A stretch of 64,000 bases of DNA from positions 2,464,001 to 2,528,000 of the forward strand of contig OY968769.1 in the NCBI GenBank assembly GCA_963695345.1, in the 5' to 3' direction. Below are positions 4,338-63,512 of this stretch, piece after piece. Within the stretch, counting starts at the first letter, position 1, and every line of letters starts with the position of its first letter. The DNA comes from an uncultured Methanomassiliicoccales archaeon. GTDB lineage: Archaea; Thermoplasmatota; Thermoplasmata; Methanomassiliicoccales; UBA472. A model generated the notes under the pieces. It worked only from the letters and a program-made list of their open reading frames with translations, was not told the origin of the DNA and did no database searches. A program made the translations under genes and the position numbers.

Positions 4338-4931
4338 ATGAATAAATTAACCTATGTATGCTGGATGATAGAAAGAGTGATTGTTCTAGGTCAAATAATC
4401 TAAAAAGGTAGAGGTCACGTGGGACCTCATACCTCGGTTTAGAAGGCGTTTGGAGTTGGTTGGGCCGGTGGCTCACCGCTCCTATGCGATCCTCTCCTCC
4501 TAAGAAAGTCCGCTTTTCGTTACCTCGAACGATTGCCAGTCTATCTTCGTCGGCTGGCTAACAAAGCCAATGCGTTGGTCGATATTTATGCTTTTCCGGC
4601 TTTCTTGGGTCGATTGGATTATGTTGACGTGTTTTTATTTGAAATATTTTCAGATCTGGCTTGTGAATCTGTGGATGGATTAACCATCCCGTTATTCGAT
4701 AATTATAGTTACTATAATATTAATGTGTGCATACGAACGAAGAAAAACGATCAGAGCATTTGGACGATATCCATTGGTTGTTCAAGGCATATTTTCCAGA
4801 TGCGCGGTCCTGACATGGCCTCGGCCGCTCAGATCAGGAGTCAATCCCTCTCCGATCGTCCGCCTGATCTTCTTCAATCTCGCGACCGCATGAAGGGGAT
4901 GTGCAGAGATGGACGCGGCTCGGTCATGAGC

Positions 4932-6386
4932 TCAGCGGGTCACTCTGTCAATCAGTTGCTTCTCCTTGTTATAGACCGAGATCTCCAGAGGCATCTGACC
5001 GACTGCGAAGTGGGTGGCGCACCCGAAGCAGGGGTCGTAGGCCCGGAAGGCCATCTCCACCTTGTTCAGTATGTTCTCGTCCACCTTTCCTCCGTGTATC
5101 AGGCCCTTGGCGGCATCGCGGATGCTCATGCAGATCGCCGGATAGTTGTTGGTGGTGGCGACGATCATGTTGACGTTCCTGCACCAGGGCGTTCTCGTCC
5201 AGCCGGTAGTGGTGGATGAGCGTTCCTCTGGCCGCCTCGACGATGCCGACACCCTCGCCTGGCTCTCCCGGCTTGTTCCGTACGTCGGTGCTGGTGATCT
5301 CCGGGTCGCTCGCCAGTTCGACGGCGCGTTCGGCCGCGTACAGCAGCTCGATGAGCCGGGCCCAGTGGAAGACCAGGGTGCCATGCGCCGGCTTGCCCAG
5401 CATCGCGAACATCCGCTCGTACTCCTGCCTGAGCCAGGGGTGTGGCCATCCCGTCCGCGGCGTTCAGCCGGCCAGGGGACCGACCCTGTAGATGCCATTG
5501 TCCGGTCCGTCGGTGAAGCCGTTCCACCCGACCTTCCGCAGGAAGGGGAACTTGGAGTAGGTCCACTCCTCCGAGCGCTCCTCGATATGCTCGGCGTAGT
5601 CGGCCGCCCCGAACCGGGAGAACTCCTTGCCTGAAGGGTCGACCACCCGGACCTCGCCATCGTAGAAGTTGACGCGGTTCTTCGCGTCCACCATTCCCAT
5701 GTAATAGGTCCTCATGGTGTAGGCGTCGCTCTTGATCATGTCCAGGTACTTCGGGTTGTCCAGCACCAGGTCGTGGAACAGCTGCAGCGTGAACTGGGCG
5801 AAGTTCACCGAGGACTTGGCCATCTCCAGTATGGCGAGTCGGATCTCCTCGCTGAGCGGCTTGCTCATCCCGCCGGGCAGTCCGCTGACCGGATGGGTGG
5901 CCTTACCGCCGATGATCTCGGTGATCTTCTGGCCATAGGCGCGGTGCTTGATCACCTCCTTGGCGACGTCCAGCCCCGCCTTCTCGATCACGCCCAGGAT
6001 GTTGCGCTTCTCCGCCGGCGCATCCGGTCCGACGATGAAGTCCGGTCCGCCCAGATAGTAGAAGTGCAGCGTATGGTCGTAGATGATGTAGCCCATGTAC
6101 TGGAGCTCCCTCAGCTTCTTCGCGGCCGAAGGCGGAGTCGACCTGGAACGCCGCGTCCAAGGCCTTGACCGAGGCGTAGATGGTGGGCCACCGGGCACAC
6201 CCCGCATATCCTGGTGGTGATGATGGGCATGAGCTCGGCTGGGCGGCCGACGCAGAAGGCCTCGAAGCCCCTGAGCTCAGGGACCTTGAGGTATGCGTTC
6301 TCCACCTCACCATCGTCGTTGAGGAAGATGGACACGCTGCCGTGCCCTTCCAGCCTGGTGATCGGGTCGATGTTGATCTCCTTCAT
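4932..6386 (-). CDS. mvhA: [NiFe] hydrogenase large subunit, group 3c (MvhA/VhuA type), frameshifted
   Basis: IDPITRLEGHG, L1 motif RICGVCP, EAARGTLIHHY, L2 motif RAYDPCFGCATH followed by a 25-aa C-terminal extension. Confidence 0.92.
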
Positions 6387-7366
6387 TCTTTCATCACCTT
6401 CCTTTGCAGGATGGACGCCGGCAGGCTGTACATGTAGAATATGCCCACCGGGTCCTTGATCTGCGATATGAGCTTGGTCGACTTCCTCGTCAGTGTACGT
6501 TCCCGGCTCCTTGTCCAGGTTCAGGATGGAGGCCAGTGCCGTGATCATTCCCGCTCCCATGTCGGGCTGGTTGGGCGCCGCACCGCCGCAGCCGGTGCAG
6601 GGCATGTCCACCTTGAGGCACTGGGCTCCGCAGCCGCTGCGGGTGGCCATCCCCATGCATATGATGCCCTGCTCCATCAGGCAGCGCTCCGGTTCCGGGG
6701 TGATCTCGTACACCCGGTGGATGCTGGAGATCTTCTTGTTCTCCCGCTTGCGGGGGCATTGGTCGCACACCGCCGGCAACGGCGCCAGGACCGAGCCCTT
6801 GGGAGGCAGTTCGTTCTTCACGATAGCTTCCAACGCCTTGTTGATGAGAACGACCGGCGGCGGGCAGCCAGGCAGGAAGTAGTCGACATCGACGGTCTGG
6901 TCCAGCGTCCTGACGGTATCGTAGAACATCGGAATGTCGAAGCGTACCCTCCTTCACGGCGGTCTCGGCTCGGGATAATGCGCCGTCGTCCGTGAACTTC
7001 GTTGCGAGTAGACCTGCTCCAGTATGCCCTTGGCATCGCTGAGGTTCGCCAGTCCGGGCACGGAACCCTCGTTGGCGCATGATCCGAAGGCGACCAGGGT
7101 CTGGGATTTGGAGCGGAGCAGCTTCGCCATGTGCTCCTGCTCGCTGTTCCGTATCGAGCCGTTGAAGAACGTGATGTCGATGTGACCGTCCGGCATCGCC
7201 TCGACGTCCTTGTACTTGACGTCCATCGCCACCGGCCAGAAGACGATGTCCACCGACCTTGACGACATCGAGAATCGTCTCGTTGATGTCCAGGACGGCT
7301 ATCTCGCAGCCGCCGCAGCTGGCCGCCCAGTAGAACGCTACTCCTCAGTTTCCGGTCGATGTTCAC
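6383..7366 (-). CDS. mvhG: [NiFe] hydrogenase small subunit (MvhG type), frameshifted
   Basis: FYWAASCGGCE, AFGSCA, LPGCPP, VCDQC, CLMEQGIICMGMATRSGCGAQC..PCTGCGG. Its stop overlaps the mvhA ATG (ATGA). Confidence 0.9.
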
Positions 7367-8805
7367 TCCCCCTCTTGTGCTCTCGTTCATGAGATATTCG
7401 TGCATCGCCTTGGCAGCACGCTTCCCTGCCCCCATGGCACTGATGACGGTGGCAGCACCGGTGGCCACGTCACCGCCGGCGAACACGCCCTTCAGGTTGG
7501 TCCGTCCCTCTGCATCGACGATGATGGTGCCGTTTCGCGGATTGGTCACCAGCCCCTCGGTGGTGCGCTGGATGATGGGGTTCGGCGTCTGGCCGATGGC
7601 GACGATGACGGTATCGGCCGGGATCTCGAAATCCGAACAGACAATGGGCTTGACACCCTGCCTGCCCCTGTTCGTCCGGTTCTGTCAGCTCCATGCAGGT
7701 GCATCTCATGGACTTGACCCAGCCCTTCTCGTCACCGTAGAACTCGATCGGGGCGCTGAGGAACTTGCACATCAACCCTTCCTCCTCGGCGTTCTCGATC
7801 TCCTCCCTCCTGGCTGGCAGCTCGTTCCGCGAACGCCGGTAGTTCAGGCAGACCGTCGCCCCTAGCCTCATGGATATGCGGGCGCAGTCCATGGCCACGT
7901 TCCCTCCGCCGATGACGACCACGTGCTTGCCGATGCGGATCGGGGTGTCCTTTTCCGGGAAGTCGTAGGCCTTCATCAGGTTGACCCGGATGAGGAACTC
8001 GTTGGCCGAGTAGATGCCGCCCAGGTTCTCACCGGGGCATCCGGTCCACTGCGGGAGGCCGGCCCCGCTGCCGATGAATATCGCATCGTAACCGTTCTCC
8101 AACAGTTCCGGGATGGTGTGTATCCTCCCGATGAGATTGCCCAGTCGCAGGTCCACCCCCAGCTTCTGCACGTACTCGATCTCCTTCTGGACGATCTCCT
8201 TGGGCAGACGGAACTCCGGGATGCCATAGCTGAGCACACCGCCGGCCACATGCAGCGCCTCGAACAACGTCACCTCATGACCTAGTCTTGCCAGGTCGGA
8301 TGCTGCCGTCAATCCCGCCGGGCCGGCACCGATGACCGCCACCTTCTTTCCGGTTGGAGGCACCTTCTCCGGGATCTGCACTCCATGCTCCCTCTCCCAG
8401 TCGGCCAGGAACCTCTCGAGGCGTCCGATGTTGACCGGATCGCCCTTCTTGCCCTTAATGCACTTCATCTGGCACTGCTCCTCCTGCGGGCAGACGCGTC
8501 CGCAGACGGCGGGAAGGGCGTTCTTTGACTTTATGATCGCAATGCCTTCGGCGTACTTTCCCTCAAGGATGCAGTCGATGAACTCCGGGATAGGCACGTC
8601 CACGGGGCAGCCTTTCCGGCATTGGGGGTTCTTGCACTTGCAGGCACCGGGCCGCCTCTTTCAGGGCCATCTCCTCGGTGTAGCCAAGAGCGACCTCGCT
8701 GAAGTTCTTGACCCGCTCGTCAGGCTCCTGCCTCGGCATCGGCACGTCCTCGTCCGTCGTAGCCCGGGCGCGTCCTCTCTTCTTCTCAGGCTCAGTACCG
8801 TTCAC
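7363..8805 (-). CDS. nfnB: NfnB/SudA (GltD-like) large subunit of electron-bifurcating NADH-dependent ferredoxin:NADP+ oxidoreductase, frameshifted
   Basis: ERVKNFSEVALG, EAARCL, PAVCGRVCPQEEQC, IGAGPAG, YGIPEFRLPK, GGGNVAMD, YRRS (NADP type), GVFAGGD..GAATVISAMGAG. Confidence 0.9.
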
Positions 8806-9635
8806 ACTTGCAGCCTCCGTTCGTTTCCCAAAGCATGGAACTCAACCTCTCTTCCGGGAGCATGGTGCGCTGGCGTTTGATGAGCTCGTCGAAGTTGGTC
8901 TCGTGCCCGTCGAACTCGGGGCCATCCACGCAACCGAACATCATCTTGTCGCCCACGGTCACACGGCAGACACCGCACATGCCCATGCCATCGATCATGA
9001 TCGGGGTCAAGGTCACAATGGTCGGGATGCCGTAGGGGCTGGGTCATCTCGCTCACCTCTTTCATCATCACCACCGGTCCCATGACCACGCACCGGTCGA
9101 ATCTCTCCGTCTGGAGGAGATCGTTCAGGAAAGCCAATCCCATTTTCCCCGCAGTCCCATCGTCCGAGGCGATGTGGACCTGATCGCTGTTTGCCATGGC
9201 CTCCTCCTTCATGAAAAGCAGATCGCTGCTCCTGCAGCCAAGGACCGTAGTCACATGGTTTCCTGCCGCCTTCAAGGCCTTGGCCTGAAGCAGCAACGGG
9301 GCGATCATTATGCTTCCGCCCACGCACAGCACCTTCCCGAAAGTTCCTGATCTCGGAAGGATTGCCCAACGGTCCGGTGACGTTGAACAGGCAGTCGCCC
9401 TGGTTGAACGTGCCCAGCTCCTTGGTGGTCTTGCCGACCTCATGGAAGGCGAATGAAACCGTTCCTTTCTCCGCGTCGTAATCACAGATGGTAAGGGGTA
9501 CTCTCTCCCCTCCCGTTTTCGCTATGACGATCAGGAATTGCCCCGGCTGAGCTTTGGCGGCGATCTCCGGGGCCTCGACCTCGAACAGGGTCATCTTGTA
9601 GCTGAGCGCCTTTTGGACAATATCTTGTATGTCAT
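8792..9635 (-). CDS. nfnA: NfnA/SudB small subunit (FAD, [2Fe-2S]), frameshifted
   Basis: AQPGQFLI, GERVPLTI, GPLGNP, IMIDGMGMCGVCRV..CVDGPEFDG; lies directly upstream of nfnB. Confidence 0.88.
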
Positions 9636-10850
9636 CATTCCGCCTCCCTTTGTAGCGGTATCTTTGGCATACGGCATGGTTGCGATCCTCTCGAAGAAAG
9701 CCTCGAACTTCTGGCTGAATTCGCCCTCACATCTCGGCGAGAGCTCGTGTATCTCGAACCGATCGAGCAATCCTGCTTCTTCAGAAAGGCTGTGAGGACC
9801 TCGAGCTGCCTTTCTGAGGTGTCTCTTCCCTGCTGGAGCTTGCAGTCCTTCGCCGAGCAGACTACCGCCATGACGCCGTCGAAGCCCTGCTCGAAGGCGC
9901 TAACCACCTGCACCGGGTCCATTCCCTTGAAGCAAGGTACCTCCATGACAAGAGCGTTCTTCCCTTGGAGCATCTTCTCCGGATCGTCCAGAGCTGAGTA
10001 CTCCGACCACTGGCAGCTGAGGATCAAGATGGCAGGTCTGCCGTCTCTGGCCCTTATCCTCTGTGCCGCGGCTCCATAGGATGCGATGAGATCTTTGAAC
10101 TCATATCCTTTGACGTGGATGGCGTTGTGCGGACAGACCAGCTGACAGGCACCACAGCCCATGCATTTCTCGGCATCCGTGGAAGGCGTGGAGAACGGTT
10201 CTGACTTGATGGCTCCGTAGGGGCATACGAACACGCATTTGCCGCAACCGACGCACTCACTGTTGTTCCTGACCACCTTTCGAGAATACTTCACGACCTT
10301 CAGCGCATCATCGGGATAGCCGAGCTGCTTGATGACCGCCTCGCCAAGTAGCATGCGCCTTGTCCCGATCCCGGTGCCTTCCTTCATACGGCAGAATCCG
10401 TCATGGCACTGGATAGAGATGATGTTCTTCACGCCCGACTTCAGGGCATTGAAAATGAAATCCGTCGGGATCCTTCCGGCGCATGGGATGCGCAAGGGCA
10501 GATAACCCTCCACCTTCAGGCCCCTGTCCGGCAAGGATGTCCTCGACCTCGCCGCTGCTGGGCGAGTTGCCCCTGCACATCATAACCAGCGTATCCGCGC
10601 ATAGGTTCTTTCGTGCCGATATGACGTAATCGAGCAGGTCCCCATAATCGTAGTATGACATCTCGATGGCCGAGACGGGACAGGCACTATAGCATATCCC
10701 GCAGACCTGACACTTTTGGATGTCTATGCTCAGTTTACCGCCATCGGGCTGACGGTCAATGGCCTCGAACGGACAAAGCGAGAAGCAAACCGTGCATCGG
10801 CTACAGAGGTCTTGGTCAATTCTAACGGCTGCAAGGCAGTTATCGTTCAT
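9635..10850 (-). CDS. mvhD: Tandem (2x[4Fe-4S] ferredoxin + MvhD-like [2Fe-2S]) x2 protein, frameshifted near 10535 and 9775
   Basis: Four CxxCxxCxxxCP motifs in two pairs. Each pair is followed by an MvhD-like unit (MMC/IPCAGRI/QCHDGFC and LSCQW/VPCFKG/GFDGV..CSAKDC). Confidence 0.8.
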
Positions 10851-11196
10851 ACCTGATATCCCCCTCAGGGTCGAAGAAATTCTGTGGCCGGGACATGTAA
10901 TCCAGACCGTAGAGGGCGCATAGACATCAACTTATTTATTGGATAGCTTTGGTCCATCCGCCGTTCACTGCAAAAGAGTCCTCGCGGAATCTTTACAGTA
11001 GCAGAGGTTGGATAATGGGTAGATTATATAATGAGTACTATCGAAGGTTCGTGAATGGTTTAGGTTACATTATTATGTGTCGAAATATTTCCTGGATATG
11101 GTAATAAAAATATATGCGTGGCTAAAATTAAATAGACGCATAAACATTAATTATATGAAAATTGAGACATCTATCGCGTAATTGCCGTAAGGAATC

Positions 11197-11231
11197 ATTC
11201 AAAGCACCGTTTTTGAATAGATATTATATAA
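11197..11231 (+). promoter_or_regulatory. Candidate gdhA promoter: inverted repeat ATTCAAA-N8-TTTGAAT immediately before a TATA-like ATATTATATAA
   Basis: Perfect 7-bp arms at 11197-11203 and 11212-11218; TATA-like element at 11221-11231; GGAG before the ATG at 11270. Confidence 0.5.
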
Positions 11232-11269
11232 GAAAAATTCCATTCCGAATCTTGTAGGAGCGTCATTAG

Positions 11270-12609
<1,340 letters not shown>

Positions 12610-12644
12610 ACAGTATGTTTAGATGATCAGCGCACAAAGCTTGT

Positions 12645-12702
12645 CCCGCCCCGCTCAGACATAATCGGTCTAGGGCGGGCCGAGCCCCTTATTCATTTTT
12701 TG
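12645..12702 (+). terminator. Hairpin plus T-tract after gdhA
   Basis: CCCGCCC..AGAC..GTCT.GGGCGGG followed by ATTCATTTTTTG. Confidence 0.45.
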
Positions 12703-12958
12703 ACAATTTGAACTATGGGGAGATCCCTTTGATCTCGCTGGCCTTCCGTCGATCGGCAGATGATCCGATAGGGCCTCACCGCCAAACCTCATTCGTGTCT
12801 TGACGTTCTGCCTAATGGATCCATCCCCAAACTGGCCAGGTCCATCTTATATGGAATGTGCCCGTCAGCAACCATTGGGATACGATGCCTGCACAAATAT
12901 CAGGACGACATTTTAATAGTCTAGCTAATACTATACACCTAGCCGAGGAGGGTTCACC

Positions 12959-52029: not shown

Positions 52030-53346
52030 TCAGCTCGTGATCGCCCCTGCGCTCCTACGAAATCGGACAATTGCCACCACGATCATCATTTGACGATCGG
52101 GGTTATGTCGATATTGAACATCTCTGCTCCAGTCCTCGTTGCCGAGGCATCCGCCCGAGCATATCCCCGCATAAGGGCAATCGCAGGACGGCCTTCTCCG
52201 AAGCGCGACCATGTCCTTCGAGTGCCAAAGGTCCAGAATCCTTTGGTCCTTGATATTGCCGATCGTCTGGTCCAGATTACCGCACGCCCTTACCTCCCCA
52301 TCGGCGCTGATGTACATCAGCGACCTTCCAGCAGGGCATCCGTAGATGGTGGCATCGCAGCAGACCGGACCGTAGGGCGGGAACCCTCCCCCTTCGATGT
52401 TCAGACCGTCCGGGCCGCTCTCCCGGAAGACCCGTATCCTGTCTGACATTTCCACCTTGTCCTCCCTGTCCCATTGGTCCAGTTTGCTGCCTCTGCCTTT
52501 GGAGAACAGAACAAGAAAGCGCAGGGAAGGTACATCCAGGCTACTTGCCAGTCGGATCATGTCATCCATCTGATGCACGTTGGCATCCATGACGGTGCAG
52601 GAGATGTTCAGGGAGCCGACCCCATGCTTCCTCAGCAGCCTGACGGCCTCGCAAGCCCTGGAAAAGGCCCCTGACCTGCCAACGATGGCATCGTGGGTAC
52701 TTTCGTTCGCCCCATGGATGCTTACCTGAACCGAGTCGAATAGGATCGCCATCTTCTCAGCCAGGGCGTCATCCACCAACAGACCATTTGTGCTCGTGGA
52801 AAGGGTCCTGATCCCCGACATCCTGGCCAAGGTGGCTAGCTCGATGAAGGAGGGATTGCAGGTGGGCTCGCCGCCCATGAACGACATTTCCGGAATCCTG
52901 AGCTCACCAGCCTGTTGTATGATATCCACATAGTCCTGTAAGGAGAGGCCGCTCTCGGCGGATGCTGGAGATGCTTCCCTCGAGCAATGGATGCAACGCA
53001 GATTGCATTTCTTGGTGATGTCCAACTCAATCTTCAGGGGCATCTGGAAAAACCATGTGGTCTCCATATCCCGGTATGATTCCGCATATCTTCGGTCTAT
53101 GTCGGGGACTATCAGTCTCCTAGAGGCGTCTGGCCCATATCCGATGAGGCCGTACCGATAATATTGTTCAAGCTCCTCTGCGTCTTGGTCGGACCGGGAT
53201 ATCTCCCAGAAGCTCTTTCCCGGGACCGATTTGAGAAGATCGACCGAATCCACCACATACTGTCCCCGATCGTTCTCGATGACATATCCGGCATTCATGG
53301 GGTAAACAAACAGATCATCCGTCAAATAGAGGGGCGCACCCTTCAT
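52030..53346 (-). CDS. Radical SAM enzyme with SPASM domain and RRE-like N-terminus (peptide maturase); start may extend to 53427
   Basis: CNLRCIHC, MGGEP, STNG, VQVSIHG; SPASM CPAG..ISADGEVRAC..IGNI..CDCPYAGICSGGC. Confidence 0.9.
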   Translation of the reverse strand: MKGAPLYLTDDLFVYPMNAGYVIENDRGQYVVDSVDLLKSVPGKSFWEISRSDQDAEELEQYYRYGLIGYGPDASRRLIVPDIDRRYAESYRDMETTWFFQMPLKIELDITKKCNLRCIHCSREASPASAESGLSLQDYVDIIQQAGELRIPEMSFMGGEPTCNPSFIELATLARMSGIRTLSTSTNGLLVDDALAEKMAILFDSVQVSIHGANESTHDAIVGRSGAFSRACEAVRLLRKHGVGSLNISCTVMDANVHQMDDMIRLASSLDVPSLRFLVLFSKGRGSKLDQWDREDKVEMSDRIRVFRESGPDGLNIEGGGFPPYGPVCCDATIYGCPAGRSLMYISADGEVRACGNLDQTIGNIKDQRILDLWHSKDMVALRRRPSCDCPYAGICSGGCLGNEDWSRDVQYRHNPDRQMMIVVAIVRFRRSAGAITS

Positions 53347-53482
53347 TGAGATCTCCTTTCCTTCGCCGGTATGGGAGATCTCGGGTATCGAACAGGGGAG
53401 ATACTGCTCATTCTTGAATTGCATCATGATTCAACCTGCTGGCGATGTCGATTATAGAGGACTGCCAAACAACCGTTCCAGA

Positions 53483-53791
53483 CTATTTCCTTATCTGAAC
53501 CCCTTTTGACTTGAAGTATTCCGCAACAGAATCCTTGTTCATGCTGATGTACTCGGATACCAGATCCTGACGGTCATTGATCTTGATCGAGAAGTCGTCA
53601 CCGGCACACCCGAATCGATCCATCTCGGCCGGGCATTTTCCTTCTCTGCAACAACCCTTGTCTTTGCAGCACCCCTGGTCCCCGACGCAACCGCAATCAT
53701 CGGCCCCCACCGGACCGATCCCCGCTCCTATCTTTTTCGTCGCCCTGACCTTTGTCGACGATCTGATGGCTTCTGTGGCAGTTCTTGGCAT
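53483..53791 (-). CDS. Cys-rich 102-aa peptide, candidate RiPP precursor
   Basis: Lies directly upstream of the rSAM/SPASM gene on the same strand; core DDCGCVGDQGCCKDKGCCREGKC..GC with 8 Cys. Confidence 0.75.
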   Translation of the reverse strand: MPRTATEAIRSSTKVRATKKIGAGIGPVGADDCGCVGDQGCCKDKGCCREGKCPAEMDRFGCAGDDFSIKINDRQDLVSEYISMNKDSVAEYFKSKGVQIRK

Positions 53792-53813
53792 GATTATAAG
53801 TCTGAATCCACGA

Positions 53814-53821
53814 TATTTATA
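53814..53821 (-). promoter_or_regulatory. TATA box (TATAAATA) about 23-30 nt upstream of the precursor ATG, implying a leaderless mRNA
   Basis: Plus-strand TATTTATA at 53814-53821 within an AT-rich intergenic region. Confidence 0.5.
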
Positions 53822-53997
53822 CATATTCATGGTTAGGCAATAATCTACCCAATTTGGATTACGAATGCCACTAAAATATTAAAGAAGATTTCATCATAAA
53901 CAAGTTATTCTTCTTCTATTGATGTATAGTGAAAATTGATTTCCCAATCATATCGGCCTTGTTTGTCATCAATTCCTGACTACATCAATCTCGTACC

Positions 53998-54492
53998 CTA
54001 TGGCAGGTTATTTAGAAGTGCTCTCTCCACCCGAACGGCAGCCGCCTCCACCTCGGGGGTCAGTCCCTCGCCGAAGTCCACGTTCTTCGGTTCGATCAGC
54101 AACAAGGCGATCCTTGCTCCGGTCAATGTGCTTACGTAATCGCAGAAGACCCTGAGGGGAAGGGTATGAGTGGAGATCGATGGGACATTGACCACCTCCT
54201 CAGCCTCGTACAGATGGGCGGTGCCTGGCTCAAGTCCGAGCAATGCCGCGTCAACGAGGAGCACATGGGAGGGGCTGATCGCCACGATCTCGTCAACGAA
54301 GCTCTCCGGTACTGTCTCGCATTCGATCAGGTGGACCGATCCCGAGACCTTGTCCTGGAGATCCTCCACGATCCTCACCCCGACGTAATCATCGGAGCGG
54401 ATCGAGTTGCCTATACCGGCCACCACGACACTGGTCGCGCCGTTTAGCCAGTCCCTCAGTTCTTCCTTCATTTCCTGGGTGTGCTGGTTCAA
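53998..54492 (-). CDS. hycI: Hydrogenase maturation endopeptidase (HycI type)
   Basis: VAGIGNSIRSDDYVG, ETVPESF, LVDAA, STHTLPL, FGEGLTPEV; GGAGG before the TTG start. Confidence 0.92.
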   Translation of the reverse strand: MNQHTQEMKEELRDWLNGATSVVVAGIGNSIRSDDYVGVRIVEDLQDKVSGSVHLIECETVPESFVDEIVAISPSHVLLVDAALLGLEPGTAHLYEAEEVVNVPSISTHTLPLRVFCDYVSTLTGARIALLLIEPKNVDFGEGLTPEVEAAAVRVERALLNNLP

Positions 54493-54575
54493 TTCAGGAC
54501 CTCCTGGTTGATTCGCTCGTGGTCGCGGAGAGTCCGGTGCTGGACGATTTACGCGCGCTGGCGGCAGACGCGTTG

Positions 54576-54925
54576 TTAGCCTCGTCCATGGAACACCAGT
54601 GTGCCATGCACCGGCTTGCCCAACGCTTCGAAAGCGACGTGTCGGCCTGCGCCAGAGGTGTGGCCGATCACCGCGGCGTTCAGTCGGCGCGGAAGGCCAT
54701 CTCCACCTTGTTCAGCGCCTCGTTGATCCCTTCCATCCCACCTTTGGGTAAGGGACTTTGGAATAGGGCCGCCTCGGACCTTTCGGCGATGTGCTCCTGG
54801 CAAGACGGCCGATCTGGAGAACTATTTCCGGAGGGGTCGACCACCCGGCGTCGCTGTCGTAGAGTTGACCAGTTCTTCGCACCACCGCTCCCGGTCCAGG
54901 TTCGCATGTAGTGGAGGTCGCTAGC
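54576..54925 (-). pseudogene. Degenerate, rearranged relic of an mvhA-type hydrogenase gene
   Basis: Fragments RVVDPSG, EHIAERSE, LNKVEMAFRA, RLNAA and LGKPVHGTLVFH match mvhA at 4932-6386. The 26 nt at 54690-54715 are identical to 5044-5069. Confidence 0.8.
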
Positions 54926-55147
54926 GTAGCCCCCGGGCCGCCTTTCGGGTCGCCTTAATGGATGTGGTTATTTAATCGATGCGTCCGACTCTTCGTATGT
55001 GGCTGAACGCGAATGCTTGGACGAACCGCCCTGGACAGCAACGAGAACCATGACCTGTCTTACACCTGCAGATGTGCAGAAAGAAATGAGGACCATGGAC
55101 GAGCCAGCAAGAATATCTTAATATGGCATCACCCAATAGCTATTTTA

Positions 55148-56077
55148 ATGGACTACGACCTGGTCATCATCGGGGGCGGGCCAGCCGGTCTTACGGCGGG
55201 CATCTGCGCGGTGCAAAGCAGGATCCGTACCGTCATCATCGAAGCCGCCGAGGCCGGAGGACAGCCAGGCGTTCTCTATCCGGAGAAGGAGATCCACAAC
55301 TTCCCCACCTCCCAGGCGGTGACCGGCAGGGACATTTCGCGGAGTTTCGTGGAGCACGCCCTGAACAAGGGCTGCATCATCAAAGAGAACGAGACGGCCG
55401 AGGACATTCTCGACATTCCCGACGGCTTCCGGGTCGTAACGACCAAGGGATCGTACACCACCACCGCGGTCATCGTCGCCATAGGCAACGGGTTCTTCAT
55501 TCCCAAGAAACTGGACATACCGGGAGCCGCTGAGCTCGAGGGCAGGGGGGTTTACTACATGATGCCCCCAAAGAAGGAATTCCTCGGGAAAAAGGTCATG
55601 TTCATCGGAGGGGGCAACTCCGCGCTCGAGATGGCCCTGATGGTCCATGAGATCGCCGAAACATGCATTGTGCACCGGGGCGGAACGTTCCGGGCCGACC
55701 ATTGCTTCATCGAGAGGGTGGAGGAATCCCATATCCGGACACGCATGAACGCCCAGCTCCTGAGGATCGAAGGGGATGGCAAGGTGGAGAGGGTCGTGCT
55801 GAGGGTCGGGGATGCGGAGGAGGAGGTCCCGGTGGACATGGTGGTCATCAAGGTCGGCATGACCCCGGAACCGGAACACCTGAAGCGTTGGAACCTGGAC
55901 CTGGAGGGAGAAGGAATCCGGGTCAGTCAGCAGATGATGACCTCCCGGAAGGGCGTGTTCGCGGCCGGGGACGCCGTCACCTATCCAGGCAAATACCGGC
56001 AGATAGTCACAAGCTGCAGCGAGGGGGCGACCGCCGCCAACTCCGCGATCAAATACGTCAAGAAGATCACCGTCTAG
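55148..56077 (+). CDS. TrxR-fold NAD(P)/FAD oxidoreductase lacking CxxC (YumC-type ferredoxin-NADP+ reductase-like)
   Basis: IIGGGPAG, GGQ..LYPEK.I, GGGNSA, HR..FRA, GVFAAGD; RGVYYMMP in place of the CxxC. Confidence 0.85.
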   Translation: MDYDLVIIGGGPAGLTAGICAVQSRIRTVIIEAAEAGGQPGVLYPEKEIHNFPTSQAVTGRDISRSFVEHALNKGCIIKENETAEDILDIPDGFRVVTTKGSYTTTAVIVAIGNGFFIPKKLDIPGAAELEGRGVYYMMPPKKEFLGKKVMFIGGGNSALEMALMVHEIAETCIVHRGGTFRADHCFIERVEESHIRTRMNAQLLRIEGDGKVERVVLRVGDAEEEVPVDMVVIKVGMTPEPEHLKRWNLDLEGEGIRVSQQMMTSRKGVFAAGDAVTYPGKYRQIVTSCSEGATAANSAIKYVKKITV

Positions 56078-56845
56078 GATCGGACGTTCGTCCTATCCCC
56101 GCCCGGTCCATTGGGCGGATATGGATTTTTTCCATCTCTCCATGCATGTCCTGGCCCCGCCAACAATCGTAATTAACAACCCCCTCAGAATATCTCTTGG
56201 AGCGTGGATAGATGGCTACCGTTATCTATGGGCCAATCGGATTTTCCGTCAACGACATTTTTCCGGACAGTCGGAGACATGGGCACTGACCGGGTTCAAA
56301 TGGGAGGATGTGAACGAGGTCTCTGCGCATCATTCGTGTGTAGGGGTGGAAAGGAGAGATCGCTGACTGTGACAGACATCGTTTCAGAGGCGTCACCCAA
56401 CGGAGACTGGCGCCTCCGGTTCACGGTGAGGAATGTGGGCAGCTCCACCCTGAACTACGGGATATTCACTCCGTGGATAAGGGCGTGAGTTCCTTGAACG
56501 ATACTGGAAGGAATGGGAAAAAGGAGGCGGCACGATGAGGATTCAGGTACCTGCATGACGACCAGGGCATCATAATCTCCTTCTCGGAGCTTCAGGAAGG
56601 GTTCGACGGCGAACTGACCCTGATGCCGAAGGAAGGCCAGTAGGTGAAGGTATTGGATCTGCCCGGTAAAATAGGGAGAAGCCGGGCAGCGGGGAGGATT
56701 TCAGAAGCCTGATCGAACGGGTGAAGCAGCACAAGGTGGACATCACCAGCAAGGGAGCTTAAGCTTGTCAGGAGAACTGGCTGATAGAGATCGGACGGAA
56801 GGAAACATCCAGGTCCTGGTCGGAACAAGGCACCTGAGAGAGCGA

Positions 56846-59629
56846 TCACGCCGGTCTATGGCCGGAGTGGGCTGGCAACCTCCCCTCGATCGGGATGGTG
56901 AAATAGAAGGTGGCCCCCCGTCCTGGTTCCGACTCCACCCATATCTGTCCACCGTGCCTTTCCACGATCCTCTTGCAGATGGCCAGTCCAATGCCCGACC
57001 CTTTGTACTCGTCCCTCGTGTGCAGACGCTGGAACATCTCGAATATCCGACGCCTGTACTTCTGGTCGAACCCTATCCCGTTGTCCCTGACTGCGAATTT
57101 CCAGTATGATCCCGCCTTGAGCGCGGATATGTGCACCGTTGGTGGTTCTTCCCCATGGAACTTGATCGCGTTGGAGATCAGATTCTCCAGCAATTGGACC
57201 ATCTGGGTCTGATCGGCGCTGATGGTCGGCTGGCTCTCATAGGATATGATGGCGCCGGTCTCATTGACAGGATGCTCGAGATCCTTTAATACGATGGCCA
57301 TCACCGTTTCCATGTCGGTCGGCAGGAACTCTTTTCCTTGGGTCTCCACCCTTGAGTAGTCCAGTATGTCCTTGATCAGCCCTTTCATGTCATTGGCGCC
57401 GTCAATGGCGTGGGAGATATATTCCGTCGATCTCTTGTCCATTATGCCGCGGTTGCACCTCTCCAGAAGATGGAGATAGCTAGTTATCGTCCTCAAAGGA
57501 GCTTGCAGATCGTGCGAAGCGACGTAGGCGAACTGCTGAAGGTCGGCATTCGATCGGGCAAGCTCTTCCTGGACCTCTCGAAGTTCGGTGATATCCTGGG
57601 TGGTGGTCACTCCCCCGATGATCGCCTCTCGGTGGTCCTTGATCGGGGAGGCGGAAACCATGATCGTCCCGCCGGTGCCGTCGGACCTCTCGAGGTCGAA
57701 GACCCGTCCAATGACCGGTTTCCCATTCGTTATCGCCTCCCAAAGAGGCATTTCGTCCGGTTGAACTGGCCTGTCACTATCCTCCCACCTCAGGTCACGC
57801 TGTTGCGTTTCCTCAAGGAGTCGGACCTTCCTTTGCCTACCGCAGATATCATCTAGCCGGCTGTTCGTAAGCTCGGTCCTTCCGGAAACATCGGTGACCC
57901 GAACACCGACCGGGAGGGTATCGAGGATGGTCTTCAGACGGATCGTTTCCTCTTCCTTCCTTTGCACCAGTTCCTCTATCCGTTTCCTGGCGTTCACCTG
58001 CTCCGTGATGTCCATCATCGTGGCGACCCTTGCCGGTTCTCCATTGAAGTCCATGCTCCTGGCCTTGATCTGCACGAAACGAACATCGCCGTCCTTACGG
58101 ACCATATGCGCTTCGTACGCCTCGGCCATTGGATGCTGGACCACTTCTTCGACGATCTCCTGAGATTCTGGTGCGAATAATTCGTGGATCGATCTGCCGA
58201 TGATCTCGCCCCGGGAATATCTCATCTGCTCGAGGGCCGCTTTGTTGACATCAACGATCAACCCGTTCACATGTATCATGATGCCTTCGAATGTTGCCTC
58301 TGAGAGAGTGCGGAAACGCTCCTCACTTTCCCGCAGGTCATCCTGCGCCGCTTTCTGATCCGTGATGTCGGTAGATATGCCTAGGACCCCGATCACATTC
58401 CCTTCCTGATCTCTCAGTGGGACCTTGCTCGTGTCCAACCATCCGGTCTTGCCACCGGCCCTGCGCTGGCTTTCGACCACGTGGAGCTTCGCATTGCCGC
58501 TTTCCATCACCTGGCGGTCATCTGTCCTATATGCCTTCGCCTCGGTCCTGGCCCAGGGCATGTCAAAATCGGTCTTGCCAATGAATTCCGATGAATCGGC
58601 AAAACCGGCGTTCCTGGCGGATTCCCGGTTCGCCCCCAGGTACACCGAGTTCCGGTCCTTCCAGTATACGACCCCTGGGAAGTTGTCGAGGACTATCTTG
58701 AGCATCTGCTCCGAGCGCTGCAGCGCTTCCTCCACGTTCTTCCGCTTGGTGATGTCCTCATAGGTACCCAGAACTCCGATGACCTCTCCTTTGGAATCCC
58801 TGAGGGGAACCTTGCTGGTCTGCAGCCAACGGGTACCTCCATCGGATTGGATCTGCACCTCCTCGAAGTTGATCTTCGGTGAACCGCTCTCCATGACCTG
58901 GCGATCATCGGCCCGATAGGAGTCGGCGGAGTCACGCCATGCCAGTTCATGGTCGTTCCTCCCCACTATCTCGGCCGGGTCTGGTAGTCCTGCGTCGCGC
59001 GCCGCTATCTGATTGCAGCCCAGATAGTTCAGGTCCCGGTCCTTCCAGAACACCCGGACCGGAACGCTGTCCAGGACCAGTTGGAGCATCTGCTGGGAAC
59101 TTCGCAGAGCCTCCTCGGCCCTGACCTGTTCGGTAATATCCGTTACCACTCCGTCGATCCATTGGATTTCTCCGCCGGGGCCGGGGACGGCGGTGAATAT
59201 CAAGGAGCACACTATCGACGTACCATCTTTACGCCTCATCCTTACCTTGTGGTCCTTGACGCCACCTTCCTTTCTCAAAATGGAAAGCAATATTTCCCGA
59301 TCTCTCGGATCGCTGTAAAGTTCTATCGGGGTCACCTTCAATATCTCGGCGACGCTTTCGTAGCCGAATATCCTGGCCATCGCTGGGTTGGCTTGGATTA
59401 TGGGCTTGTTCCCAATCGCGCAGGTCTGATAGATCCCGATGTTGACGTTCTCCACCAGGGTCCTGAGCTTCTTCTCGCCTTCGGCCAACGCCCTATTGCC
59501 GCGTTCCAATTCGGCGATGCGTTCTTCGAGCTGGAGACCGGACAGTCCTATCTGCGACGCCCCTCCAGTACCGATCACCCTTTGGCGCAGGTCCCCGGCC
59601 CTTCGCAGATCATCAGGGTGCTCTTTCAT
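56846..59629 (-). CDS. Multi-PAS histidine kinase with Cph1-type kinase module
   Basis: Five PAS/PAC units; ELARSNADLQQFAYVASHDLQAPLR, NLISNAIKF, GSGIGLAIC. Confidence 0.93.
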   Translation of the reverse strand: MKEHPDDLRRAGDLRQRVIGTGGASQIGLSGLQLEERIAELERGNRALAEGEKKLRTLVENVNIGIYQTCAIGNKPIIQANPAMARIFGYESVAEILKVTPIELYSDPRDREILLSILRKEGGVKDHKVRMRRKDGTSIVCSLIFTAVPGPGGEIQWIDGVVTDITEQVRAEEALRSSQQMLQLVLDSVPVRVFWKDRDLNYLGCNQIAARDAGLPDPAEIVGRNDHELAWRDSADSYRADDRQVMESGSPKINFEEVQIQSDGGTRWLQTSKVPLRDSKGEVIGVLGTYEDITKRKNVEEALQRSEQMLKIVLDNFPGVVYWKDRNSVYLGANRESARNAGFADSSEFIGKTDFDMPWARTEAKAYRTDDRQVMESGNAKLHVVESQRRAGGKTGWLDTSKVPLRDQEGNVIGVLGISTDITDQKAAQDDLRESEERFRTLSEATFEGIMIHVNGLIVDVNKAALEQMRYSRGEIIGRSIHELFAPESQEIVEEVVQHPMAEAYEAHMVRKDGDVRFVQIKARSMDFNGEPARVATMMDITEQVNARKRIEELVQRKEEETIRLKTILDTLPVGVRVTDVSGRTELTNSRLDDICGRQRKVRLLEETQQRDLRWEDSDRPVQPDEMPLWEAITNGKPVIGRVFDLERSDGTGGTIMVSASPIKDHREAIIGGVTTTQDITELREVQEELARSNADLQQFAYVASHDLQAPLRTITSYLHLLERCNRGIMDKRSTEYISHAIDGANDMKGLIKDILDYSRVETQGKEFLPTDMETVMAIVLKDLEHPVNETGAIISYESQPTISADQTQMVQLLENLISNAIKFHGEEPPTVHISALKAGSYWKFAVRDNGIGFDQKYRRRIFEMFQRLHTRDEYKGSGIGLAICKRIVERHGGQIWVESEPGRGATFYFTIPIEGRLPAHSGHRPA

Positions 59630-60469
59630 GCCACTCCCCCGTTAGGCCGCTTTCACGGACAAGAAAGATCTTTTTGTCCCGTCGATCGTAAGCATATCCA
59701 CTGACCAGATCCCCTGCCCCAGTTCTGAATACGCTTCCTTGCGAAACGCAGTGATCCACCAGCAATCTGATTTCGGACATGATGAACGCCATGATCCAGA
59801 TATTAAATATAACATTCCATATAATATAAAATAGGCCTCGAACAAAGGATCTGATCCTCCCCATTTTCACCACTTTCAATAATGTCTGGCATCGTTCCTC
59901 GTGGTGGCCTTCGAGTCGTCACGGAAAATCGTTAACTTTTCAACTCTTGATTGGCCACGGTCATCCGAAACAGGGAACCGCTGATGGCATTCCATGAGTC
60001 CAAATCCAATGGGCATCGTCCCTGATTGCCGACCCGAAGATCCATCAGTCAGTAATAAGCCACGAACTAGAGGATAATGATTTTCATCCATGCGCTGGCG
60101 CCTTACCATTGGACAACCTGATGCCTGAATCCGTCATAGTATCAAAACTAGGACCGGCCATTCCTTGGAATTCGTGGATGGACCCCGATCAGGCAATTCC
60201 CCATCATCATTTCCCGGACCAATTATTCGTATGCCTTATCTCTCTGCGGTCATTGCTCCATCTGTAGGGCGAACTGATCGGTGTACCTAACGATCAATCT
60301 CCTCAAAATATGGGTGTCCCAGAGCGTCATGTACGCGCCCGCCGGATGAGCCGGACGTTTCTTAGGAGGAAAGCCGTGGTACATAGGCCGGCGGCCGCGT
60401 GTAAGACAATTCGGAGATGAGCGATAAGACACTTTCGGATGTTTTTCAAAAACACGAATGGGCCATTGT

Positions 60470-60937
60470 CTAGAACCAGAACTTCGGATCGGAACCGTCC
60501 GAGAGCGAGTCGAGTATGTCCTTGAGATTGATCACCGTGGCCTCCATTTCATCCGCGCACATCGGTTTGACCAGATAGGCGTTGGCGAGATTCTGCCTCG
60601 CCTTCTCAATATCTTCGGTCGAGTTCGACCCTGAACATATCACGATGCAGATATCGGTCAATTTCACTCCCTTCCGAATGAATGACAGGACCTCATGTCC
60701 GTTCTTTTTCGGAAGGTTGACATCCAATAATATGAGATCGGGGAACCGATGTTCGCCATTTAAGGCAGCTTTTATGAAGCGTATCGCCCCTTCCCCATCA
60801 TCGACCAATGACAGGTCGAAAGGAAAGCCGGTCTCCTGCATCAAAGTGCCCATCAACACAGCGTCCGCCTGGTTGTCTTCGACAAGAAGGACGTTCAAAG
60901 GAATGTTCCTTTCAATTGTGTCCTTCTTATTGTTCAT
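60470..60937 (-). CDS. Stand-alone response regulator (Rcp1-like)
   Basis: VLLVEDNQAD, PDLILLDVNLPKKNGHEVL, AYLVKP. Confidence 0.9.
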   Translation of the reverse strand: MNNKKDTIERNIPLNVLLVEDNQADAVLMGTLMQETGFPFDLSLVDDGEGAIRFIKAALNGEHRFPDLILLDVNLPKKNGHEVLSFIRKGVKLTDICIVICSGSNSTEDIEKARQNLANAYLVKPMCADEMEATVINLKDILDSLSDGSDPKFWF

Positions 60938-61189
60938 GAAATCAACGACCCAGAAATTATTATGCGGTAATCCTCACTCCATACGGGCCATTGGTCACGC
61001 ATTGGCCGCTTTTATGGATTTTATATATTTAAGATTCATGTTGTCATGAAATATTTGAGATAACCGTCATTCGAGCGATCGATATCAGGTAACAGTTTTC
61101 TGCATCACCCGGGCATGGAAGCCATGAAGATGGCTCATCTGATAGAATGTGGAATAATAATATCTACCCATCACAATATGGCGTGGTTA

Positions 61190-62356
61190 ATGAACGAGCA
61201 TGACCGGTCCTCCATGCGGAAATTCGTCTCGCCTGAGATCATCTTCGGTGAAGGCGCACTAGACCTGATAGGAAGATATGTCACCAACCTGTCCGGTCAG
61301 AGGATATTCATCGTTTCCGATAAGGGGGTGGGCTCAGCCGGTTGGACAGGACGCGTTGAGCATTCTATCCAGGATGCTGGATTGGAGCATGTCCTGTTCG
61401 ATGCGGTTTCCGCAAACCCCAGGACCTCGGAGGTCATGAAAGGGGCAGAGCTCTATGAACGCGAGAAATGCGACGTCATCGTGGCCGTTGGAGGAGGGAG
61501 CCCGATGGACTGCGCCAAGGCGGTCGGGGTTGTCGCCACCAACGGGCGGAACGTGCTCGAATTCGAGGGAGTGGACGCAGTTGAGGTGCCAGGCCCCCCG
61601 CTCATCTGCATACCCACCACGGCCGGTTCATCTGCGGACGTATCTCAGTTTGCCATCATCACCGATGAGGTCAGGAAGAAGAAGATGGCGATCATCAGCA
61701 AGGCCATGGTTCCCGACATCTCCATTATCGATCCCGCCACCACCGCCACGATGGGCCTGGACCTGACCGCCGATACCGGAATGGACGCGCTATGCCATGC
61801 ATTCGAAGCCTATGTTTCGAACGCATCATCGATGATGACGGACCTTTTCGCCCTGGAAGCGGTAAGGCTCATCTCAGAGCACCTGCCCTTGGCCTATGAG
61901 CAACCGGACTCGATGCTCCACCGGGAGAACATGATGCGGGGCAGCATGTACGCCGGATTGGCATTCTCCAACGCCAGCCTGGGGCTGGTGCATGCCATGG
62001 CCCACAGCGCCGGAGGGATGTACGATGCCCCTCACGGGGAATGTAACGCGGCCCTGCTGGAGCATGTAGTCCAATTCAACTATCCATCCGCTTCCGGTCG
62101 ATACGACATGTTGGAGAGCGTCATGCGCGGTACCATTCCGAAGGACCGCGGACTGGACCCCGAGGAGAGATTGGTGGGCAAGCTGCGGGATCTGAGGAAA
62201 AGGTTGGGAATACTGCACGGCCTGACCTATTCCAATGTCCTCAGGGCGGACCTGGTCAAACTGGGCGAGAATGCCCTTCAGGACCCCTGCATCGCCACGA
62301 ACCCAAGACCGGTGACGCTTTCGGAGGTGATGGGGATCTATGAGCGAGCGCTCTAA
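61190..62356 (+). CDS. ercA: Iron-containing alcohol dehydrogenase, ErcA-like regulatory type
   Basis: RKFVSPEIIFG, GGGSPMDCAK, PTTAGSSADVSQFAII, GMDALCHAFEAY, GLVHAMAH, PHGECNA; overlaps the downstream kinase gene. Confidence 0.85.
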   Translation: MNEHDRSSMRKFVSPEIIFGEGALDLIGRYVTNLSGQRIFIVSDKGVGSAGWTGRVEHSIQDAGLEHVLFDAVSANPRTSEVMKGAELYEREKCDVIVAVGGGSPMDCAKAVGVVATNGRNVLEFEGVDAVEVPGPPLICIPTTAGSSADVSQFAIITDEVRKKKMAIISKAMVPDISIIDPATTATMGLDLTADTGMDALCHAFEAYVSNASSMMTDLFALEAVRLISEHLPLAYEQPDSMLHRENMMRGSMYAGLAFSNASLGLVHAMAHSAGGMYDAPHGECNAALLEHVVQFNYPSASGRYDMLESVMRGTIPKDRGLDPEERLVGKLRDLRKRLGILHGLTYSNVLRADLVKLGENALQDPCIATNPRPVTLSEVMGIYERAL

Positions 62357-63512
62357 CGGGAACAATATCGAGGATCTCAGGCAGAAGATAATAGGTCTGG
62401 GGGAGAAATCCCAAAGGAAGAGCTACTATCCCCAGCTGCACAAACGCATTAGCGAACTGGAGCAGGCACTGGCCGCGCTCGGGGAAAGCGAGACCAAGTA
62501 CCGCACCCTGGTCGAGAACGTCAATGTGGGGATCTTCCGTTCCATCGCATCCTCGGGAAAGATCACCCATGCCAATACCGCGTTCCTCCGCATATTTGGA
62601 TACAGTGACGACGCCACGGACATCAACGCACTGGATCTTTATCCCAACCGCGACGACAGAATTGGGAATCTCTCTCAGCTTGCCGCCCAGGTCAGTATCA
62701 AATCGCTCCGAACCAGGCTGAAGCGGGTGGATGGAACCGACATCATCTGCTCGCTCACACTGACCGCCAGGTTCCGGCCGGATGGCGAAATTGATTATAT
62801 CGACGGTGTCGTCGAGGACATCACCGAGAAGGAGCACCAGGAGGAGGCATTACGGCAGGCCAACAACAAGCTGAACCTGCTGAGCTCGATCACCAGGCAT
62901 GACGTGAACAATCAGCTCATGGCGATCGAGGGATTCCTGGAGCTGGCCTCGCAGAGGATCACGGACCCGGTGGCCCTGGATTACCTGGCAAAGGTCAAGG
63001 CCAACGCCAACTCGATAGGGCGGCAGCAGGCATTCACCAAGGACTATCAGGAGATCGGGGTCAAGGAACCGCAATGGATCTCGCTCGGGAAGTCGATATC
63101 CTCAGCCCTGCTTACCGTGGACAAGGCGCAACTTAAGATCAACGTCGAAGTGGGTGAGTATGAGGTCTTCGCCGACCCGATGATAACCAAGGTGTTCTTC
63201 AACATCGGAAGCAATGTCAACCGGCATGCCCAGGCCAGCAACCTGTTCATAACCACCAGGGAGGAAAATGGACTGCTGTTGCTGTCGTTCGCGGACGACG
63301 GCATCGGAATCGGAAAAAAGGACCGTCTGTTCACCAGGGGATCCTCATTCGGATATGGCCTGTTCCTTTCGAAAGAGATCCTCGCCATCACCGGTATCAG
63401 CATCAAGGAGGTGGGAATACCGGGCAAGGGCGCCACCTTCGAGATGACCTTCCCACAGGATAGGTTCCGCCATACTCCGGTAAGGCAATACATGTCGAGA
63501 ATAACAGTATGA
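62340..63512 (+). CDS. PAS histidine kinase with ErcS-like N-terminus
   Basis: IIGLGEKSQRKSYYPQL, one PAS domain, SSITRHDVNNQL, DDGIG, GYGLF. Confidence 0.88.
   Translation: MSERSNGNNIEDLRQKIIGLGEKSQRKSYYPQLHKRISELEQALAALGESETKYRTLVENVNVGIFRSIASSGKITHANTAFLRIFGYSDDATDINALDLYPNRDDRIGNLSQLAAQVSIKSLRTRLKRVDGTDIICSLTLTARFRPDGEIDYIDGVVEDITEKEHQEEALRQANNKLNLLSSITRHDVNNQLMAIEGFLELASQRITDPVALDYLAKVKANANSIGRQQAFTKDYQEIGVKEPQWISLGKSISSALLTVDKAQLKINVEVGEYEVFADPMITKVFFNIGSNVNRHAQASNLFITTREENGLLLLSFADDGIGIGKKDRLFTRGSSFGYGLFLSKEILAITGISIKEVGIPGKGATFEMTFPQDRFRHTPVRQYMSRITV

Follow-up and report, generated by a model that had tools for sequence, protein, structure and literature searches.

A frame-broken hydrogenase large-subunit fragment with one re-ordered segment upstream of hycI in an uncultured Methanomassiliicoccales archaeon

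The window analysed here, a 64,000-nt stretch from an uncultured Methanomassiliicoccales archaeon, contains upstream of hycI a short region in which pieces of a hydrogenase large subunit can be read, one of them out of order. This raises the question of whether the region is a working gene garbled by the assembly, a gene in decay, or a stretch kept for another use, and of how one of its segments came to be displaced. Comparison with a full-length gene in the same window and with related genomes identified 54561-54922, on the minus strand, as part of an Mvh/Vhu-type [NiFe]-hydrogenase large-subunit gene with a broken reading frame. We consider this relic to be the non-functional remnant of a large-subunit gene that belonged to a second Mvh/Vhu-like [NiFe]-hydrogenase operon, and to lie at the ancestral site of that operon; we put the probability of this reading at roughly three in four. 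The features discussed are collected in Table 1.

Table 1. Features of the relic locus and of the relocated operon (positions are those of the window).
Feature	Position	Strand	Description	Basis
Relic segment A	54726..54922	-	approx. mvhA codons ~250-330 (…YMRT…VVDPSG…EHIAERSE…KVGW), frame-broken	blastn, MAFFT
Displaced piece C, 33-nt core	54683..54715	-	C-terminal LNKVEMAFRA region	blastn
Relic segment B	54561..54682	-	approx. mvhA codons ~343-388 (RLNAA…LGKPVHGTLVFH…)	blastn, alignment
Spacer between relic and hycI	54493..54560	-	68 nt	MAFFT of 130 nt upstream of hycI, 10 genomes
hycI	53998..54492	-	hydrogenase maturation endopeptidase, 164 aa, intact	Pfam PF01750, E 1.2e-16
Retained trxB-proximal DNA	54956..55149		ancestral intergenic DNA (first gene of operon to trxB-like gene)	blastn
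trxB-like gene	55150..56077	+	pyridine nucleotide-disulfide oxidoreductase	tblastx synteny; Pfam/NCBIfam hits of G007 orthologue
mvhA1	4932..6386	-	full-length Mvh/Vhu-type large subunit; 5 single-base indels; relocated operon	
Rest of relocated operon	6390..10850	-	mvhG-like small subunit, NfnB/GltD-like, NfnA-like, FlpD(MvhD)-polyferredoxin fusion	tblastx synteny; Pfam/NCBIfam of G007 orthologues
gdhA	11270..12609	+	glutamate dehydrogenase, beside operon in inserted block	
8.2-kb block	4702..12902		operon and gdhA	flanking segments only 274 bp apart in complete genome G007

Extent and decay of the hydrogenase fragment

All of the elements listed by an earlier sequence-only reading of the locus (RVVDPSG, EHIAERSE, KVGW, LNKVEMAFRA, and RLNAA) were found on the minus strand by ORF translation and blastn. 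They are distributed over three frames, with RRVVDPSG...EHIAERSE...INEALNKVEMAFRAD in 54680-54907, PKVGWKG in 54712-54885, and RLNAA...LGKPVHGTLVFH in 54576-54803. As the reference we used mvhA1, the window's own full-length large-subunit gene, and the reverse complement of 54481-55000 was compared with that of 4801-6500 by blastn. The main match of the relic covers 304 nt and pairs window 54892-54589 with mvhA1 nucleotides 803-1135 (E 6e-24); 234 of 336 positions are identical (70%), with 35 gap positions in 18 openings, in agreement with the many small deletions that had been reported for the flanks. MAFFT alignment suggested roughly 54561 and 54922 as the ends of the relic, somewhat beyond the pieces first noticed within 54576..54925. 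Segment A is robust from 54892 in blastn, and its extension to about 54922 was drawn from a match to one relative's locus (L010) together with MAFFT.

Relatives' genes that align over a long stretch (about 10 of 17) share 67-70% nucleotide identity with the relic, and the remaining ones were matched by blastn in shorter pieces only. Mean identity to 18 orthologues is 62% for segment A and 68.5% for segment B. The relic is 65-70% identical to the hycI-linked group of genes versus 55% to a paralogue near 660 kb of the genome, which makes it a member of the former. About 360 nt are left, in pieces that occupy three frames with stops, and a continuous frame of about 470-485 aa is absent. The large subunit of these enzymes binds nickel and iron through an N-terminal RxCGxC and a C-terminal DPCxxCxxH cysteine motif, the second of which is visible in the relatives' mvhA-like frames. 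Both nickel-ligand motifs are missing from the relic, which begins near codon 250 and whose displaced piece C ends with …MAFRAD before DPC.

The genome is represented by one 2.56-Mb contig with an estimated completeness of 85%. Most long genes of the assembly are broken by single-base insertions or deletions, and many genes in the window lie in several frames. The five indels of mvhA1 fall outside long homopolymers, and 11270-12609 is also among the indel-affected genes. The single-base indels of mvhA1 and other genes look like long-read consensus errors, and gene calls on this assembly need frameshift-tolerant methods.

Such noise, with five indels in mvhA1, many multi-frame genes, and 85% completeness, could be taken to mean that an intact hydrogenase gene at the relic site was collapsed or garbled during a noisy long-read assembly. 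However, the 335 aligned columns of the relic include 11 gap openings, compared with five single-base indels in about 1.45 kb of mvhA1, counted against two orthologues that are gap-free between themselves, an indel density about ten times the assembly's own noise. Columns invariant among 18 orthologues are lost at 19 of 74 and 10 of 57 positions (29 of 131 for segments A and B together), and the relic branch measures 1.17 substitutions per site. Loss of constraint is therefore seen both in changed invariant sites and in frame-breaking indels above the error rate. The assembly's noise amounts to about 0.3% single-base indels, which cannot give the roughly 30% substitutions, the 1.1-kb shortfall, and the re-ordered segment of the relic. 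In addition, whole-genome blastn returned just three loci, namely mvhA1, the distant, 66%-identical paralogue near 660 kb, and the relic.

We also compared four public runs (X1-X4) with 53400-56300. In X1, a contig of 1259 nt (contig 4) covers 53816-54506, 54686-54725, and 54948-55176; its hycI part (53816-54506) is 98% identical with 13 differences, and the 40 nt around the displaced core (54686-54725) are present. The spacer between the outer anchors measures 340 nt in this contig versus 441 nt in the window, about 100 nt shorter, leaving no space between hycI and the trxB upstream region for a 1.45-kb gene. Coverage in X2-X4 was limited to the trxB side or to the conserved 29-nt core. The caveat of an assembly artefact, which the sequence-only reading had attached to the locus, is largely answered by this short spacer in an independent public contig, and such an artefact is very improbable.

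The operon site in related genomes

The parent operon places hycI after the large-subunit gene, an order shared by many hydrogenase operons. HycI homologues are present in 38 of 41 related genomes (this genome counted). Among the related Methanomassiliicoccales hycI loci with a HycI identity of at least 50% (L002-L018), an mvhA-like frame ends directly upstream of hycI in 17 of 17; 15 of these frames have their full length of 473-485 aa, while a contig end truncates one and a frameshift divides another. No mvhA-like frame was found upstream at L019, which encodes a distant HycI-like protein. The adjacency of mvhA and hycI extends to 62 of 72 assessable metagenome loci and to 73 of 79 assessable species genomes (68 with a full-length frame). 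Methanomassiliicoccales and Bathyarchaeia MAGs are among them, and some of the genomes coincide with the relatives already counted.

In four genomes of the same genus (G007, G005, G002, and G003), the whole operon, comprising FlpD-polyferredoxin, NfnA-like, NfnB/GltD-like, mvhG, and mvhA genes, lies between a trxB-like gene and hycI; tblastx synteny revealed that the same interval is here a 650-nt gap holding the relic. DNA searches gave the order Y-Z-Q-hycI-operon-trxB in G003 and in the complete genome G007, versus Y-operon-gdhA-Z-Q-(2-kb insert)-hycI-relic-trxB in the window. The position of the relic is thus occupied by an intact orthologue in the 17 loci and in the four same-genus operons. 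Because relatives keep the operon at this site while the copy here sits 48 kb away, the relic is read as the remnant of the ancestral copy. The sequence-only reading had proposed the remnant of an ancestral mvh operon and an intact mvhA upstream of hycI in relatives as a check; the relatives hold the operon exactly here, from the trxB-like gene to hycI, and the check came out in favour of the proposal.

Both edges of the ancestral site can be recognized. The last 25 nt or so of the spacer, with an AGGAGG-type ribosome-binding site and a TTG start context, align with the mvhA-hycI intergenic region of relatives, and hycI itself, now parted from a large-subunit gene, is stop-free and 66-81% identical to its counterparts. 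On the other side, 54956..55149 is 82-85% identical over 41-64 nt to intergenic DNA of G002 and G003 (blastn) and would mark the far edge of the deletion; in relatives, the trxB-like gene is the divergent neighbour of the operon. No synteny was seen among the four same-genus genomes beyond trxB and gdhA, and the outer breakpoint is not reconstructable.

Several neighbouring stretches deserve mention in their own right. The region 56078-64000, whose first ORF (927 aa) was taken by eye for a multi-PAS histidine kinase, has no syntenic counterpart beside trxB in the four same-genus genomes, and this neighbourhood is rearranged in every species examined. Two genes are inserted at 52030-53830, between a CheC-like gene and hycI: one encodes a radical SAM/SPASM enzyme of 465 aa, and the ORF beside it, 115 aa long and Cys/Gly-rich in its core, matched no family. 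G007, G005, G002, and G003 lack this pair at that position, and its appearance is that of a peptide-maturase cassette. In two metagenome contigs (L074 2202-2520 and L082 2630-2948), hycI follows only the last 90-105 codons or so of mvhA, a fragment of 67-69% amino acid identity with one frame change, preceded by frames that by eye look HdrC-like and HdrB-like. The rest of mvhA is missing from the upstream sequence of both, which extends for at least 2.5 kb, making this a second, independent case.

The full-length mvhA1 is 82.5-86% identical at the nucleotide level to six of seven relatives' genes and 75% identical to that of G014. Its orthologue in G007 had NCBIfam VhuA as its best match (E 1e-130, below the model cut-off) and also matched Pfam PF00374. 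At seven larger loci from three genera, the genes upstream of hycI are the same as those in window 4932-10850. The parent operon was also observed at L021 9350-15800; in relatives hycI comes next.

Searches of the DNA of G007, G005, G002, and G003 delimited the operon and gdhA as one block with breakpoints at about 4603-4701 and at 12902-12904, the same in all four genomes. The corresponding gap holds 0.27 kb in G007, 2.0 kb in G002, 2.1 kb in G005, 3.8 kb in G003, and 8.2 kb here, and its contents are unrelated between species, the picture of a variable insertion site. In G007 and G005, gdhA lies just past the trxB-like gene. The block ends and the donor and target sites share no direct repeats, only 10-14-nt chance matches; there is no tRNA in the window, and neither mobile-element signatures nor an integrase was found at the block ends.

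A canonical-type cluster, with FAD-binding, FlpD, small-subunit, and large-subunit frames in a row, is located near 660 kb of the genome. For this order, Borrel et al. (2014, PMC4153887) describe a canonical cluster with hdrA next to mvhDGA, and this hdrA-mvhD-mvhG-mvhA cluster corresponds to the different paralogue near 660 kb. Applied to the relic, the label mvhA thus has to be qualified, since the canonical cluster is another paralogue and lies elsewhere in the genome. A hydrogenase of the NAD(P)-linked or the bifurcating kind is a possible product of the parent operon. This operon, an Mvh-type hydrogenase with NfnAB-like partners, is more interesting than the relic, and it is intact elsewhere in the window.

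Two copies and the re-ordered patch

Segments A, B, and C each have a counterpart in the full-length mvhA1; two copies therefore once existed, and the operon was copied or imported, not simply moved. From this we infer an order of events in which a second copy of the operon was first established 48 kb away, beside gdhA, in the species-variable gap. The redundant resident copy would then have been removed piecemeal, with the loss of about 5.3 kb on the trxB side (four genes and the first 750 nt or so of mvhA) and of most of the last 300 nt or so of mvhA on the hycI side. The deletions would have spared hycI and its ribosome-binding site, presumably because the protease was still needed, and the remaining 350 nt or so of mid-gene sequence would have drifted since.

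Duplication within the genome is a candidate origin of the second copy, but the sequence comparisons do not single it out. The relic is 68.5% identical to mvhA1, 69.9% to the gene of G002, and 70.2% to that of G001; it shares none of four private changes of mvhA1, and paired-site counts are even, on too few informative sites. The slow evolution of mvhA1 and the rapid radiation of the genus leave these tests with little power. On the mvhA tree, the relic was placed with 41% support on a very long branch. Searches with blastn and tblastx found no trxB relic between the operon and gdhA, no gdhA relic beyond trxB, and no hycI relic after mvhA1, so that a model in which the whole block was duplicated and its parts lost reciprocally has no marks beyond the relic itself.

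The equal distance of the relic from mvhA1 and from the genes of other species is also what would be seen if the relocated operon and gdhA had been imported from a related lineage (xenologous replacement) and the resident operon had decayed afterwards, with no duplication in this genome. The relocated block has the operon-gdhA neighbourhood of G007 and G005 (where trxB lies between) and keeps about 85-130 nt of G007-type flank downstream of gdhA. The resident site, on the other hand, resembles those of G003 and G002, with no gdhA beyond trxB in the stretches examined, and the inserts in the target gap differ in each species. Against an import stand the 5.9-kb operon tree, in which this genome's copy is basal in its own genus clade (78% support), a position that fits vertical descent, and the lack of an integrase, tRNA, or flanking repeats at the block ends. 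We regard import as a real possibility, although with less than even odds.

The displaced piece raises a separate problem. Window 54715-54683 matches window 5069-5037, within mvhA1, at 31 of 33 positions (E 2e-10, blastn), and the first 26 nt are identical, as had been noticed for 5044-5069. In mvhA1 the source of piece C lies about 400 nt 3' of the RLNAA segment, whereas in the relic it stands 5' of it, which bears out the displacement described for LNKVEMAFRA. The core ends before DPCxxCxxH and possibly extends about 9-15 nt in the 5' direction (to about 54724). The same out-of-order match to the C-terminal region was obtained with the genes of all 17 relatives at 84-97% identity; the displaced piece is thus not a chance match. 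About 37 nt from the C-terminal region stand in place of about 44 nt of the original, coding FTDGPDNGIYRVGPLA (…DGPDNGIYRVGPLA…), and the inserted bases copy nearby sequence and substitute the original rather than add to it.

In the native gene, both the copied piece (LNKVE) and the segment now placed after it (RLNAA) begin with the hexamer CTGAAC (Leu-Asn); the left junction of the patch, blurred by later changes, does not join at a clean microhomology. Our preferred reading of the patch is a repair scar templated through microhomology, which would have arisen by one template switch during repair or replication, primed by short homology. A single switch accounts in the fewest events for the replacement of a stretch by one of similar length (about 44 by about 37 nt). 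Of the two mechanisms put forward by the sequence-only reading, one that involves microhomology remains the best reading of the patch, whereas gene conversion lacks specific support. To our knowledge, and with no targeted literature search, such a templated patch has no description in Methanomassiliicoccales.

Another path to the order A-C-B would be a tandem duplication, either internal or of the gene, followed by two deletions and with no template switch. Deletions are plainly common here, and the CTGAAC repeat, as read from the alignment, could mediate unequal exchange. Yet this path needs at least three events, none of the 17 relatives' loci has tandem large-subunit genes or internal duplications, and the patch substitutes a stretch of similar length, as templated repair does. 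We consider it improbable.

For the repair scar, the template may have been the relic's own 3' end in an early event, to which we give nearly even odds. Alternatively, the patch could have been copied later from the relocated, intact mvhA1 by ectopic templated repair or conversion. After the loss of the resident 3' end, mvhA1 would have been the closest intact template, its match is the 31 of 33 with 26 nt in a row, and the distant paralogue mvhA2 matches the region less well (77.6% over 49 nt). Moreover, piece C keeps 21 of 22 invariant columns versus 102 of 131 (78%) in the flanks, with a binomial p of about 0.03 estimated by hand after several looks; this lesser decay is easier to reconcile with late copying of an intact template than with an early event inside the relic.

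The similarity, however, does not single out mvhA1. The stretch is conserved in all orthologues (84-97%) and matches three relatives at 28 of 29 positions; over 42 columns, piece C agrees with G020 at 37, with G002, G007, and G001 at 35, and with mvhA1 at 33. The 15 nt 5' of the core, which may instead continue segment A, are nearer to NEALN of G002 (13 of 15, by eye) than to DENILN of mvhA1, and there is no in-register flanking homology. A later copy from mvhA1 is accordingly rather unlikely. Because every orthologue matches the stretch at 84-97%, the 26-nt identity is no sign of recent gene conversion, and the conversion from 5044-5069 suggested earlier, being also out of register, is unproven. 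A conversion tract from mvhA1 as such is not favoured either, as the patch is no closer to this donor (33 of 42 versus up to 37 of 42) and lies about 400 nt out of register.

Possible retention and relation to known systems

Comparison with X1 bears on whether the relic is still under selection. The flanks of the relic in X1 gave no alignment at a 90% identity threshold, versus 98% for hycI, and this appears to reflect continuing neutral decay, with a relic that varies between strains; the contig may come from a neighbouring strain or even from the source habitat. An exact 20-nt search across the C/B junction in JGI metagenomes returned no match, and a HycI protein scan of JGI metagenomes found nothing above 79% identity, with no intermediate decay states among the matches. 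An Rfam scan of the relic gave no matches at E<=1, and its fold is no more stable than that of shuffled sequences (z -0.96); none of these results points to a function.

Is the relic then purely junk? Having lost its upstream operon, hycI needs a new transcription start, and the relic might be kept, for example, as a promoter or leader for the orphaned gene. A weak TATA-like GTAAAT 53 nt before the TTG start is a candidate, and L074 and L082 likewise have nothing of mvhA but a 3' fragment ahead of hycI. The candidate TATA, however, belongs to the 68-nt spacer, outside the hydrogenase-derived part, no RNA family matches, the fold is ordinary, and the spacer of the X1 strain, about 100 nt different and with flanks below 90% identity, behaves as neutral DNA does. 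Co-option of the relic is unlikely in our view, and the narrower proposal that the mid-gene fragment and its patch are retained as the source of the hycI transcription start and leader is, if anything, a little more doubtful. If true, it would mean that a dead hydrogenase gene has been put to new use in controlling the gene for its own maturation protease, and that the L074 and L082 fragments reflect the same constraint.

Annotations should label the region a pseudogene fragment rather than a coding sequence, and should treat this genome's hydrogenase operon and its protease gene as separated. The relic is an example of a conserved operon site emptied once a second copy existed, of piecemeal deletion stopping at a gene still needed, and of a short templated patch within a decaying archaeal gene. 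It is an ordinary feature of genome decay with one odd scrambled patch, and leaves the knowledge of hydrogenases and of repair unchanged.

Like other prokaryotic gene relics, the pseudogene fragments that survive piecemeal deletion of a redundant copy, this one is significantly homologous to a functional gene, has disrupted frames with too many substitutions and small deletions, and occupies the syntenic site of an orthologue that is intact in relatives. The present relic differs in its internal re-ordered patch and in that its surviving neighbour, hycI, is a dedicated maturation protease parted from any large-subunit gene. Its parent family is MvhA/VhuA, the large subunit of the F420-non-reducing [NiFe] hydrogenase that works with a HycI-type endopeptidase, from which the relic differs in having neither nickel-ligand motif. 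The parent operon, in turn, differs from the canonical hdrA-mvhDGA cluster, as far as the cited account describes it, in its NfnA-like, NfnB/GltD-like, and FlpD-polyferredoxin fusion partners.

Gene conversion between paralogues likewise produces a short tract nearly identical to another copy, but the patch is out of register and no nearer to an in-genome copy than to the genes of other species. Synthesis-dependent microhomology-mediated end joining and short-range template switching leave templated insertions (for context, PMC12426944 and PMC7954356). The junctions of the patch have drifted since the event, and such a mechanism is here a proposal; the resemblance lies in a short stretch for which nearby sequence would have been copied in direct orientation, with CTGAAC shared at the boundary.
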